From Malacoraja senta (Eukaryota), in assembly GCA_038087875.1 (NCBI GenBank), contig CM075994.1, positions 992,001 to 1,056,000 on the forward strand: a stretch of 64,000 bases of DNA. The letters are read 5' to 3'. The notes under the pieces were generated by a model. The model saw nothing but the letters and a program-made list of their open reading frames with translations. It did no database searches and was not told where the DNA came from. Below, piece after piece: positions 145 to 17,221 of the stretch. Each line of letters opens with the position of its first letter. Positions within the stretch are counted from its first letter, which is position 1. The translations under genes and the position numbers were made by a program.

Positions 145-183
145 CAATAAAAAGATAGTCATCGCCATCGCTTTCAGTGGTTC
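145..183 (-). CDS. Same gene, exon 7 ((G)TTESDGDDYLFI), acidic linker; the gene continues past the left edge
   Basis: A long AG-free pyrimidine-rich tract ends in cacaag. Exon is 39 nt, phase 1-1, with donor ATTG|gtaagc. Confidence 0.7.
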
Positions 184-401
184 CTTGTGATCAGATGGTA
201 TCATGTATAGAAGGAAAAATGACAACAAAAAAAGGCAGGTTATTCCATCTTTTGAAATATCAGTTGAAGTTTAGGGCAGGTTGATCATGAGGGAGCTTTA
301 GGATGAGGAATGAATTGAGAGGAGTTCTAGACCGACAGAGTGACAGGTATTCTTCTCAAACTGGGCTTTTAATAGTATACTAGACTAAGTATATATATAT
401 A

Positions 402-600
402 CTAGACTAAGTGGGACCCGTTGGGTTCCAGTCACACGGGAAGCCTGGACCCCCAACGCAACCCATTCCCCAACACAATATTCCACCACTCATCTGTTCC
501 CCCAACGAAACCCGTTCCCCCAACGAAACCCGTTCCACCACTCACCCATAGATCCTAACTGCGCAGGCGCGGCTCATTTTCCCTGAATATCCAGTTTCAG
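402..600 (-). mobile_element. Probable Helitron-type 3' terminus
   Basis: On the minus strand a hairpin tggaaccc-aac-gggtccca (one mismatch) is followed by 6 nt and then CTAG|T. The 5' end was not found. Confidence 0.45.
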
Positions 601-1272
601 GAACAGCTTCTCCCGACAGCCATCAGGCTATCACCACTACAACCTCCAAATATTCTCTGGACTACATAGACTCGCTGGCATTGGTTTTGTCTTTTTCAAC
701 TATTATTGTTTGTTTGTTTTTATGTGTATGTATGTGGGTGTGTTCGTCGATAGGACTAATCCTTAGAGTGCAGGAGGGTGAGGGATGATCTTATAGAGAT
801 GTATAAAACCATGAGAGGAATAGATTGGGTGAACGCACAGAATCTCTGTGATTCTGTGACTCTAACACCCTGTGGCTCTATGGCTCTAGGTATCTGACAA
901 TGACTCCATGACTATGACTGTGACCACGTAGGTGTCCAGAGAGGACCCAGCGGCATTAGTGGACAATGGCGCCGACCGACGGATGAGGACGGAACACGTG
1001 GAAGTGAGGACGTCGCTGCTGGGAGAAGGAACAAAGGAGGACCCGGCATAGGGCGACCGCCGTGAGGGAGGGGGAAGAACAATGGGGACCCAGCGTGGGG
1101 GGACCGCGGTGAGGTGGGGGGGGGAGGCGGGTGGTGAAGTGCAAAGGGGGACCTGGCGTGGGGGGGATTTGTAAATTTATAAGCGCCCTTCATAGACTAC
1201 TATTTGCATTCCTTAGCAAAGTATGCAAGCAAAGAATTTCATTGTGACCTCACATTTGACAATCAAGTCTAC

Positions 1273-1388
1273 CTATCTATCTATCTATCTATCTATCTAT
1301 CTATCTATCTATCTATCTATCTATCTATCTATCTATCTATCTATCTATCTATCTATCTATCTATCTATCTATCTATCTATCTATCTAT
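1273..1388. repeat. (CTAT)29 microsatellite
   Basis: Perfect tetranucleotide array. Confidence 0.97.
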
Positions 1389-1404
1389 GACTGCATGACT
1401 CTAT

Positions 1405-2455
1405 AGAGTCATCGTCATAAAGTAATACAGTGTGGAATCAGGCCCTTCGCCTCAACTTGCCCACACCGGCCAACAATGTCCCAGCTACACTAGTCCCACC
1501 TGCCCGCGTTTGGTCCATATTCCTCCAAACCCGTCCTCTCCATGTACCTGTCCAACTGCTTCTTAAACATTGGGATAGTCCCAGCCTCAGCTACCTCCTC
1601 TGGCAGCTTGTTCCATACACCCACCACCCTCTGTGTGAAATAATTACTCCTCGGATTCCTTTTATATATTTTCCCCTTCATCTTGAACCTGTGTCCTCTG
1701 GTCCACGTTTGCCTTATTCTGGGCAAGAGACTCTGTACATCTACCCGATCTATGCCTATCTAAATACTATGTGCACTCTGTGCATCTACCCGATCTGTTC
1801 TAACTAAACAATAGGGCCTGTTTCTGTGCTGTATCTCTAAACTAAACTAAGCATGTCCTATCCATGTACCTGTCTAACTGCTTCTGAAATGTTGGGACAG
1901 TCCCAGTCTCAACTATTTCCTCGGGCAGCTTATACCCAATCTATTGATCTCATGATTTTGTACACCTCTATAAGATCACCCCTCATCCTTCTGCGCTCCA
2001 TGGAATAGAGACACAGCTTACTCAACCTCTCCCCTTAGCTCACACCGTCTAATCCTGGCAACATCCTCGTAAATCTTTTCTGACCCCTTTCAAAGTTGAC
2101 AATATCTTTCCGATAATATGGTGGCAGAACTGAACACAATATTCTATATGGCGTCTCACCAACGTCTTATACAACTGCAACATGACCTCACAACTTCCAT
2201 ACTCAATACTATGACTGATTAAAGCCAAAGTGCCAAAAGCCTTTTTGACCACCTTATCTTCCTGCGACTCGACCTTCAAGGAACCATGTGCCTGCACTCC
2301 TAGATCCCTCTGCTCTACAACACTACCCAGAGGCCTAACGTTCACTGTGTGCATCCTGCCCTTTTTCCATACCCCAAAATACAACACCTCACACTTCTCT
2401 GTATTAAATTCCATCAACCATTCCTCTGCCCACCTGGCCAATCGATCCAGATCCT
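1405..2455 (-). mobile_element. CR1 3' fragments
   Basis: Peptides RTRGH-like...FTQRVVGVWNKLP and WAEEWLMEFNTEKCEV...LYKTLVRRHIEYCVQF. Confidence 0.8.
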
Positions 2456-2720
2456 ATATGACTATGGCCCTATGAATACATGCATCTATGACTGGATTTC
2501 CCCTGGTCAAGGAAAAATTCTCTGCAAATTCCTTGTTGCACTTGGAGGATTTGTCTTGGAACTGAGAAAAATGGCTTTGTTGCTGGGTCCGAGGCCCCAT
2601 CCCTCTTCCCTCACATCTGCTCACATGGAATTGTCAAAAATAGCAAAACACAGGGTGCTGGAGACAGCAGCTATGGAGGGAATGGCCAGGTGATGTTTTG
2701 TGTCAAGAGATCGACTCAAA

Positions 2721-15204: not shown

Positions 15205-16105
15205 TATTAGAGTCTTAGAATCATAGAGGGATACAGTGTGGAAACAGGCTCTTCAGCCCAACTTGCCCACACCGGCCAACATGTCCCATCTACACTTGTC
15301 CCACCTGTTTGCATTTGGCCCATATACCTCCAAACCTGCCCTATCCGTGTACCTGTCTAACTGCTTCTGAAATGTTGGGACAGTCCCAGCCTCAACCTCA
15401 ACTACTTCCTCTGGCAGCTTTTACCCAATCAATTGCTCTTATGATTTTATACATCTCTATAAGATCACCCCTCATTCTCATGCGCTCCAGGGAATAGAGA
15501 CCCAGCCTCCACAACCTCTCCCTGTAGCTCACACCCTCTAGTCCTGGCAACATGCTGGTAAATCTTCTCTGTACAGTGTCCAGCTTGACAACATCTTTCC
15601 TACAACATGGTGCCCAGAACTGAACACAATACTCTAAATGCGGTCTCACCAATGACCTCCCAACTATTCTTTGTTCTACTTTCTAAAGCATTACTAATAC
15701 TTCTGCTCTTATTTCAAAATAAAGTTAACCTACTCACTTCTCCTATTGAACATGTATGCAATTAATTCGCAATGTCGAAACAAAGAACTGCAGATGCTCA
15801 TTTATACCCAAGATAAACACAGATTGTCACAAAGATTTAATAAGAATCTGAAGGGTATCGTTTTCACGCAGTGGGTGGTGGGCATATGGAATGAGCTGCC
15901 AGAGGAGGTAGTGGAGGCAGGGGCTAGGGCAACGTTTTTTAACGAGACATTTACACAGGTACGTGGATCAGACAGGTTAAGAGCGATATGAGCCAAATGC
16001 GGGCAGGTGGAACTAGTGTAGAATGGACATGTTGGCCGGTGTGGGCAAGTTAGACTGAAGAGCCCGTTTCCATGCTGTAAGACTCTATGACTATGAGTAT
16101 GGCTC
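15205..16105. mobile_element. Two CR1 3' fragments (about 15205-15650 minus, about 15830-16105 plus)
   Basis: Peptides VRPHLEYCVQFWAP and FTQWVVGIWNELP. Confidence 0.75.
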
Positions 16106-16639
16106 TAAGTGCTGGTAACTCAGCGGGTCAGGCTGCATCCCTGGAGAAAAGGGATAGGTGACACTTTGGGTCGGGACTGAAAGTGGGGGGTGGGGAGCGG
16201 AAGGGTTGTGAAGAGGTGGAGATGAAAAAAGATCAGGGCCGGCCACAAATTAACACAGGCAGGGCGGAGCCTGGTAGGTCCATTGTTGGTGTGATCTCAA
16301 GAGGGATACAAAGTGGTGAACTATGGAACTAATTTAACTATGATGGAGGAATGGGGAAAGTGGGGAGGGGGTGGGGGGGAGGCAGTCGGTAGAAGTTACT
16401 TAAAATTTGATAACTCAACGTTCACCCGCTGGGGTGTAAGCTGCCCAAGCGAAATATGAGGTGCTGTTCCTTCAATTTGCGCTGGGCCTCACTCTGACAG
16501 TGGAGGAGGCCCAGGACAGAAAGGTCAGTGTGGGAATGGGAAGGAGAGTTAAAATGGTACAACACTGACATCTCAATACCTCAATAGTCACCTTTCAGAC
16601 GACACTAAATATGCATCTTTCTGCATTTAGATTTAAAGG

Positions 16640-17035
16640 TTTATTCAGTTTTGTTTATTGTCACGTGTACCGAGGTACAGTGAAACGTTTTTGTTGCATG
16701 CTATCCAGTCAGCTGAAAGACAATACATGATTACAATCGTGCCGTTTACATTGTAAGGAAACATGATAAGGAAATAACGTTCAGTGCAAGGTAAAACCAG
16801 CAAAGCCCAATCAAGGATAGTCCGAGCATCATCAAAGAGGTAGATAGTATTTCAGCACTGCTCTCTGGTTGTGGTAGTTGCCTAATAACAGCTGGGAAGA
16901 AACTGTCCCTGAATCTGGAGGTGTGCGGTTTCACACTTCTGTACCTTTTGTCTGATGGGAGAGAGGAGAAGAGGGAATGGCCAGGGTGTGACTCGTCCTT
17001 GATTATGCTGCTGGCCTTGCAGCATGAGGTATAAA
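16640..17035 (-). mobile_element. Rex1/Babar-type LINE 3' fragment in intron 2 of the C-x11-C gene
   Basis: Peptide KPHTSRFRDSFFPAVIRQL and a 3'UTR similar to 12030-12410. Confidence 0.65.
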
Positions 17036-17051
17036 ATGAAGTAAAAATTAC

Positions 17052-17102
17052 CTGGCAGTTGCACGAAATATTTAATCAGATGTAAGATGTCCATCGAGCC
17101 CA
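17052..17102 (-). CDS. Same gene, exon 2 ((V)GSMDILHLIKYFVQLP)
   Basis: Preceded by a 79-nt intron with a CTAAC branch site and the acceptor tttgttccttcactttgcag. Exon is 51 nt, phase 1-1, with donor CCAG|gtaatt. It completes the signal peptide (...PLVGS). Confidence 0.85.
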
Positions 17103-17181
17103 CTGCAAAGTGAAGGAACAAAGTTAGAGTTTCGGGGTGATGTGAGTTAAAATACAGGCAGACTAAAATAAGTTAACTCAC

Positions 17182-17221
17182 CAAGAGGGATCAGAAGGAC
17201 AATGAAAAATATTGCCCTCAT
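17182..17221 (-). CDS. Unrecognised secreted C-x11-C repeat protein, coding exon 1 (signal peptide MRAIFFIVLLIPL)
   Basis: ATG at 17221 has A at -3 (ATCATGA) and is followed by 13 mostly hydrophobic codons. Donor CTTG|gtgagt is phase 1. The TATA box lies about 110 nt upstream. Confidence 0.85.

Follow-up and report, generated by a model that had tools for sequence, protein, structure and literature searches.

Does one end of a 64,000-nucleotide stretch of DNA from Malacoraja senta encode a secreted protein from a handful of tiny exons set among repeats? We addressed this question on the whole stretch (the window; positions 992001-1056000 of contig C18 in the 1.94-Gb assembly G000), at the start of which the initial annotation had placed a hidden minus-strand gene with a signal peptide and exon-encoded C-x11-C repeats. 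The analysis points to a complete protein-coding gene of eight exons on the minus strand, spanning about 19.2 kb from its ATG to the last base of exon 8 (G000:C18:990085-1009221), and we put the probability of this reading at roughly 0.7. The gene is very probably real, and it probably functions as described below.

The seven exons claimed for the window were all located, at exactly the coordinates listed here (window numbering), and each of the seven lies in a low-copy island between repeats, as had been proposed.

17330..17337, minus strand: TATA box TATAAAAA, 116 nt upstream of the ATG
17182..17221, minus strand: coding part of exon 1 (40 nt), with the ATG and most of the putative signal peptide, ending in phase 1
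17052..17102, minus strand: exon 2 (51 nt), with the end of the putative signal peptide and a strongly amphipathic N-terminal segment
13484..13543, minus strand: exon 3 (60 nt), with the first C-x11-C unit
8971..9048, minus strand: exon 4 (78 nt), with the second C-x11-C unit
7400..7432, minus strand: exon 5 (33 nt), a linker
6667..6753, minus strand: exon 6 (87 nt), with the third C-x11-C unit and the start of an acidic stretch
145..183, minus strand: exon 7 (39 nt), an acidic linker
1..144, minus strand: first 144 nt of intron 7, a 1,970-nt intron that leaves the window towards exon 8

The borders proved to be as claimed, with GT at 7/7 donors, AG at 6/6 acceptors and every intron in phase 1, and the joined exons gave 388 nt, or 129 codons, free of stops. 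All internal exons are in phase 1 at both ends and have lengths that are multiples of three. Splice sites were scored by a weight matrix built from the vertebrate consensus. On this scale the donors of exons 1 to 7 ranked 6, 15, 2, 8, 4, 13 and 24 among the 1,086 GT sites of the gene strand, the sixth-ranked exon 1 donor being GTGAGT, and the acceptors of exons 2 to 7 ranked 13, 59, 1, 3, 50 and 306 among its 1,135 AG sites. No in-frame ATG lies upstream of the exon 1 ATG within the open stretch.

The predicted continuation off the window was confirmed by reading the adjacent DNA, where one more exon closes the frame. For this search, acceptors scoring at least 5.5 in the 40 kb beyond the window start were read in phase 1, and the first frame open for at least 60 nt was taken. 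This yielded exon 8, a 90-nt phase-1 exon on the minus strand (G000:C18:990085-990174) whose acceptor scores 9.2 and which begins 1,970 nt past exon 7. It completes the coding sequence with a TAA stop and carries a fourth C-x9-K-x-C unit, followed by a His-rich tail that ends in MDEL directly before the stop. The motif was not used in the prediction, and the chance of meeting it in that one exon is 5.8e-4. Exon 8 has the form of an internal 90-nt symmetrical phase-1 cassette. A donor-like GT (score 7.3; G000:C18:990085-990088, minus strand) lies 1 nt past the stop and is kept in all four genomic copies of the gene; it reflects either an intron in the 3' untranslated region or an ancestral gene that extended further.

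Each C-x11-C repeat sits in an exon of its own, in agreement with the initial annotation, and the cysteine pairs fall at residues 32/44, 52/64, 92/104 and 134/146 (exons 3, 4, 6 and 8). Control DNA set the background: C-x11-C occurred at 228 of 166,002 codon positions, and C-x9-K-x-C at six. With 56 possible positions in the exons, 0.077 units would be expected, and four were found (P 1.4e-6). Lysine occupies position 10 of the 11 spacer residues in all four units (P 7e-13, for a pattern defined post hoc); since that pattern was recognized upon inspection, exon 8 serves as its fair test. The repeated C-x11-C motif is the feature of the locus that exceeds chance, and it is the decisive one. The four units have the pattern C-x-[LIF]-x3-[LFT]-x2-[LMV]-K-x-C in common and nothing more, and this points to a gene that grew through exon duplications far older than its present copies.

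The spliced product has 158 residues, with a mature part of 142 residues and a pI of 4.5. Read by eye, its N-terminus consists of R2 and a run of twelve hydrophobic residues, and the residues at −3 and −1 ahead of residue 17 are small. This inspection of the sequence supports the claimed signal peptide, in that the N-terminal ~16 residues resemble a cleavable one. The segment encoded by exon 2 has a hydrophobic moment of 1.78, and the mature part of copies A and B (listed below) contains no N-glycosylation site. The product had been called secreted or membrane-anchored. The second of these did not hold, there being no membrane anchor, and the first is less than certain given the MDEL end, which is similar to signals for retrieval to the endoplasmic reticulum; we consider secretion likely.

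The gene belongs to a small set of copies. Searches with the DNA of exon 6 and with the peptide of exon 4 both hit exactly four places in the genome, the former with identities of 100, 100, 88 and 86% and the latter with no other match at E<=10, so that no further family member was found beyond these four loci at that threshold. A scan for motif and splice sites likewise revealed no further member in the 244 kb of DNA examined. The four copies are as follows.

The locus studied here, minus strand: copy A, intact
C18:863918-883192, minus strand: copy B, intact
C18:702422-720726, plus strand: copy C, with splice sites, frame and eight cysteines kept and the tail frameshifted
C680:388446-411200, minus strand: copy D, a pseudogene

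Each of the other three loci has all seven exons of the window in the same order (7/7 at B, C and D), and exon 8 aligns in all four copies. Splice sites, frame and 8/8 cysteines are retained in A, B and C, among which exon 5 is identical (0/33 differences per pair). In copy C, exon 6 has gained 3 nt in frame, while the insertion of a single nucleotide in exon 8 replaces the tail and removes the DEL end. Copy D is a pseudogene, disrupted by frameshifts and several stop codons and with GC as the exon 2 donor. The TATA box is identical in 4/4 copies, and the stretch of ~85 nt from there to the ATG has hardly changed, even in the broken copy D. The exon 8 stop codon also keeps its position in 4/4 copies, lying in C downstream of the premature stop, where it is unread. 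At two positions of the study locus, 17214 (the third codon) and 13486 (exon 3), single contigs from two genomic read runs carry a variant base, which at 17214 is that of copies B, C and D; these contigs probably derive from paralogues matched at the 95% threshold and not from alleles.

Comparison of copies A, B and C revealed how exons and introns have changed, and the three pairwise comparisons are not independent. Exon substitutions numbered 16/478 for A-B, 38/478 for A-C and 33/478 for B-C, versus 98/4,568, 148/4,518 and 150/4,521 in the 300-nt intron flanks. Locus-wide counts over 12-17 kb of aligned intron (392/17,549 for A-B and 444/12,287 for A-C) agreed with the flank rates. With intron divergence of 2.2% for A-B, 3.3-3.6% for A-C and 3.3% for B-C, the copies are young. 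Replacement sites differed at 1.94, 2.41 and 1.86 times the intron rate for A-B, A-C and B-C (P 0.02, 4e-5 and 0.007), whereas silent-site difference was compatible with the intron rate. Changes in CpG context (5/16, 5/38 and 6/33) did not drive the excess. Exon changes were rich in transversions, with a transition/transversion ratio of 0.6-0.8 as against 1.1 in introns.

The changes were distributed unevenly. Exon 2 was the most variable, with 8 of its 17 residues differing among A, B and C, compared with 0/11 in exon 5 and 1/13 in exon 7; between A and C, 9 of its 51 nt differ, where 1.7 would be expected from the introns. Only 2 of the first 13 residues, the exon 1 part of the putative signal peptide, vary, and the 5' leader is almost invariant. 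The locus thus shares the traits of secreted gene families under accelerated evolution, with a replacement excess over introns in 3/3 pairs and a conserved leader. This excess argues for translation under diversifying selection and against neutral decay, and the overall pattern agrees with a translated protein in which selection diversifies the residues around a fixed cysteine scaffold.

Several observations weigh against the gene as we describe it, some of them general and others tied to the rival explanations taken up in the following paragraphs. The gene is described here from genomic DNA. Two sequencing runs covering window positions 1389-20000 yielded contigs continuous across the exon-intron borders of exons 6, 5 and 3; both runs are therefore genomic DNA and uninformative on splicing, and none of the claimed junctions appeared among the 15 contig joints listed, out of 13,762, from these two runs. 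Exon 7 is the least certain exon because its acceptor is weak, and skipping it would preserve the reading frame. No polyadenylation signal occurs in unique sequence, the nearest ones lying 550 and 668 nt past the stop within a repeat. Finally, the tail has M at position −4, a residue missing from those that PMC2140024 names in its text as efficient for retrieval to the endoplasmic reticulum (ER).

Of the rival explanations, the one that survives best is that the gene is real but belongs to a family already described: a divergent saposin-like or MANF/canopy ER protein, a short-chain helical cytokine of the SCF/CSF1/FLT3L type, whose hallmark is an up-up-down-down bundle of four helices with family-specific disulfide pairs, or an annotated cartilaginous-fish family. 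A signal peptide and an xDEL end on a small, helical protein stapled by cysteines would be reminiscent of the ER-resident saposin-like proteins. It is also relevant that homology queries were exon-sized pieces, the peptides compared being of 25-28 residues, so that relatives below about 70-75% identity would escape detection. Within that range, queries with exon 4 (a 49-aa frame) and exon 6 (a 44-aa frame) found no protein sharing three 5-residue words among 5.8 billion clusters, with lengths of 87-2,000 aa compared for exon 4 and 78-2,000 aa for exon 6; this null result counts against the gene too. The collection includes Logan-derived and RefSeq proteins of skates, rays and sharks, and its coverage is illustrated by the stonustoxin-like frame of the window, for which it holds skate relatives of up to 87% identity. 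A phmmer search with the 44-aa exon 6 piece gave no hits among 1.84 billion representatives. Three exon peptides of 25-28 aa returned from Pfam no match, no match and one chance-level hit (E 0.17), and two exon peptides returned from the PDB no match and one chance-level hit (E 0.38).

The cysteine pattern also speaks against a described family, for the product has four C-x11-C units and no C-x2-C or C-x5-C pair, unlike the saposin pattern. The six-cysteine saposin arrangement, with its close N- and C-terminal pairs, was absent on inspection of the product, the Pfam scan being limited to the three exon peptides. The literature on the C-x11-C motif, in the portions accessible to us, dealt with zinc fingers, defensins, mitochondrial CHCHD4 substrates and similar subjects and contained no such secretory family. 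Membership in a described family is improbable in our judgement, and novelty as a family is plausible. In the skates, rays and sharks of the protein collection the gene either lacks annotation, has diverged beyond the reach of exon-level words, or does not exist. Given how fast it changes, it is quite possible that such words missed orthologues in other genera, so that the lineage restriction suggested in the initial annotation is tentative.

A second explanation holds that the four copies are relics of a once-functional gene, now untranscribed or untranslated and decaying neutrally, whose frames are still open owing to recent duplication (2-4% intron divergence). With only 16-38 substitutions per pair, an open frame could persist by chance; copy D is broken and the otherwise intact copy C has a frameshifted tail, and the exon queries found no matching protein. 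Moreover, dN/dS by Nei-Gojobori counts over the first 147 codons was 2.64, 1.67 and 1.05 for A-B, A-C and B-C, none significantly different from 1, and for this reason the case for selection rests on introns, whose rate is far better estimated, as the neutral yardstick. By that yardstick, relics should show equal change in exons and introns, whereas replacement sites changed at 1.9-2.4 times the intron rate and silent sites did not. Neutral decay also fits poorly with the strong unevenness of change among exons, with the retention of all eight cysteines and all splice sites in three copies, and with a promoter and 5' leader that are nearly unchanged even in D. We regard relics as distinctly unlikely.

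The third explanation is that there is no gene, and that splice-like sites and short open frames happen to line up in unique DNA. Permissive criteria indeed fail to set the gene apart: frame-compatible chains reached 6 exons in the gene and 1-8 in nine control stretches, and permissive candidates were about as dense, with 14 exon/frame combinations in the gene against 1-28 in the nine controls. The gene had 5 open candidates with phase 1 on either side, and the 11 controls had 0, 4, 1, 2, 0, 0, 1, 0, 5, 2 and 2. Chains in the controls mixed phases and came from transposons. The five candidates of the gene are exons 2-6, all of them; under stricter thresholds the gene kept 4 candidates, with none in 9/11 controls and 2 and 1 in the remaining two. 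Chance is very unlikely in view of the four-fold motif and the successful prediction of exon 8, the signal-peptide-like start behind a conserved TATA box, the single phase shared by all five strong internal candidates, and a stop codon at the same place in 4/4 copies.

If the gene is indeed translated, a working model can be proposed for its product. By established signal-peptide rules, the N-terminal segment would direct it into the ER. There the eight cysteines could form up to four disulfides, stapling a small, acidic, largely helical domain of four short helices. The folded protein would then serve in binding or defence, either extracellularly or within the secretory-pathway lumen, making contact through its N-terminal amphipathic segment and its C-terminal part, both of which would be under diversifying selection. 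Such a role, at an external interface, is suggested by the fast, patchy replacement on a fixed scaffold, and this is the weakest step of the model.

The fate of the product depends on its C-terminal tail, which reads MDEL in A and B and TDEL in the broken D and is lost by frameshift in C. The KDEL-type PROSITE motif, as quoted in PMC2140024, is [KRHQSA]-[DENQ]-E-L, and the M and T at position −4 fall outside its set. In the reporter screen of Raykhel et al. 2007, as described in the text of the same source (PMC2140024), K, R, H, N, F, W and Y at this position were efficient, and S and Q weaker. A literature search for MDEL together with the KDEL receptor returned no relevant paper. Retrieval of the protein to the ER by the MDEL tail is doubtful.

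We compared the gene with known systems of similar construction. The exclusion of the SCPP family by the initial annotation was upheld, since coding introns of SCPP genes are in phase 0 and 7/7 introns here are in phase 1. The twin CX9C (CHCH) proteins were also rightly set aside. They resemble the product in having fixed-spacing cysteine pairs within predicted helices, which suggests disulfide-stapled helix pairs, but they have two units of spacing 9 and reside in mitochondria, whereas the product has four units, all of spacing 11 (4/4), and a hydrophobic N-terminus like that of an ER signal peptide. MANF/CDNF, canopy and MZB1 have in common with the predicted product a signal peptide, a length of about 140-170 aa, helicity, stabilization by disulfides and a KDEL-like end. 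They differ in cysteine pattern, and they are slowly evolving single-copy genes, in contrast to the duplicated, fast-evolving gene found here.

The closest parallels in behaviour are fast-evolving secreted families such as the phospholipase A2 isozymes of snake venom, conotoxins and amphibian skin peptides, in which a conserved leader precedes a hypervariable mature part. Venom, defence and reproductive proteins classically show exon change that outpaces intron change. As in those families, the copies studied here are recent duplicates in which leader, signal peptide and introns are conserved and the mature exons change faster, with variation falling between the cysteines, whose scaffold is retained. 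The likeness does not extend to sequence or cysteine pattern. There are eight tiny phase-1 exons instead of the usual 3-4, only four copies, and a skate-like fish without known venom. Genes such as elastin and those with EGF or Ig modules are built from symmetrical phase-1 cassette exons. The present gene likewise has symmetrical exons, with one unit per exon, that can be duplicated or skipped in frame, but its units are 20-29 residues long with a C-x11-C helix pattern and correspond to no known module. Taken together, the gene behaves like young, duplicated, fast-evolving genes for small secreted cysteine-scaffold proteins, but its scaffold is unrecorded and its one-unit-per-exon build unusual.

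The introns and surroundings of the gene contain further elements.

9797..10720, minus strand: LINE reverse-transcriptase fragment in intron 3 (Pfam RVT_1, E 8e-12), outside the gene product
1273..1388, strand not assigned: (TCTA)n microsatellite in intron 6
44295-48127, plus strand: apparently intact LINE, with a 313-aa frame containing a GDSL-esterase/OSK-like domain, followed by a 984-aa endonuclease and reverse-transcriptase frame
55029-58427, minus strand: two adjoining long open frames of 777 and 354 aa
G000:C18:962036-962191, minus strand: low-copy 156-nt candidate exon with an open phase-1 frame (acceptor 9.7, donor 9.3)
G000:C18, ~964.4-969.4 kb: 5-kb stretch, almost single-copy in the DNA examined, with open frames of ~280 codons

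The 777- and 354-aa frames encode stonustoxin-type MACPF, helical and thioredoxin-like domains, two FN3 domains and an AIG1/GIMAP-type GTPase. The 777-aa frame has at least 48 genome matches, which form clusters at 1.05-1.42 Mb and at 7.0-7.63 Mb of C18 and on several small contigs; one match is ~19 kb away from pseudogene copy D on C680. Many of these copies carry a single in-frame TGA at a similar place, and the best public relatives, at up to the identity given above, are skate proteins named 'uncharacterized' or 'stonustoxin subunit alpha-like'. The 156-nt candidate exon has a second copy ~16.5 kb nearer the window; both lie downstream of the gene, are unrelated to the C-x11-C family, and may belong to another unannotated gene. 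Near the 5-kb stretch, a control chain contained a retroviral-type reverse-transcriptase-like peptide, and the stretch may be a single LTR-element insertion.

A more far-reaching proposal is that of a new family found in skates or batoids only, whose four exon-encoded C-x11-C helices make up a novel fold stapled by disulfides, and which is under diversifying selection at the edge of a greatly expanded stonustoxin-like/GTPase cluster, in which a single-base frameshift switches paralogues between ER-retrieved (xDEL) and freely secreted forms. As a whole we hold this proposal to be unlikely.

The eight-exon gene alone does not open a long-standing question, and lineage-specific genes for small secreted proteins are common in poorly annotated genomes. 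If expressed, however, it would be a gene invisible to ORF-based, and probably to homology-based, annotation, and it would bring a further, new cysteine scaffold to the few vertebrate secreted families whose exons outrun their introns, a pattern that usually marks proteins at host-pathogen, predator-prey or mating interfaces. It would also offer a clean example of growth by phase-1 exon duplication, with one exon for one structural unit, and a natural experiment on an ER-retrieval-like tail, which two intact copies retain and the third has lost.

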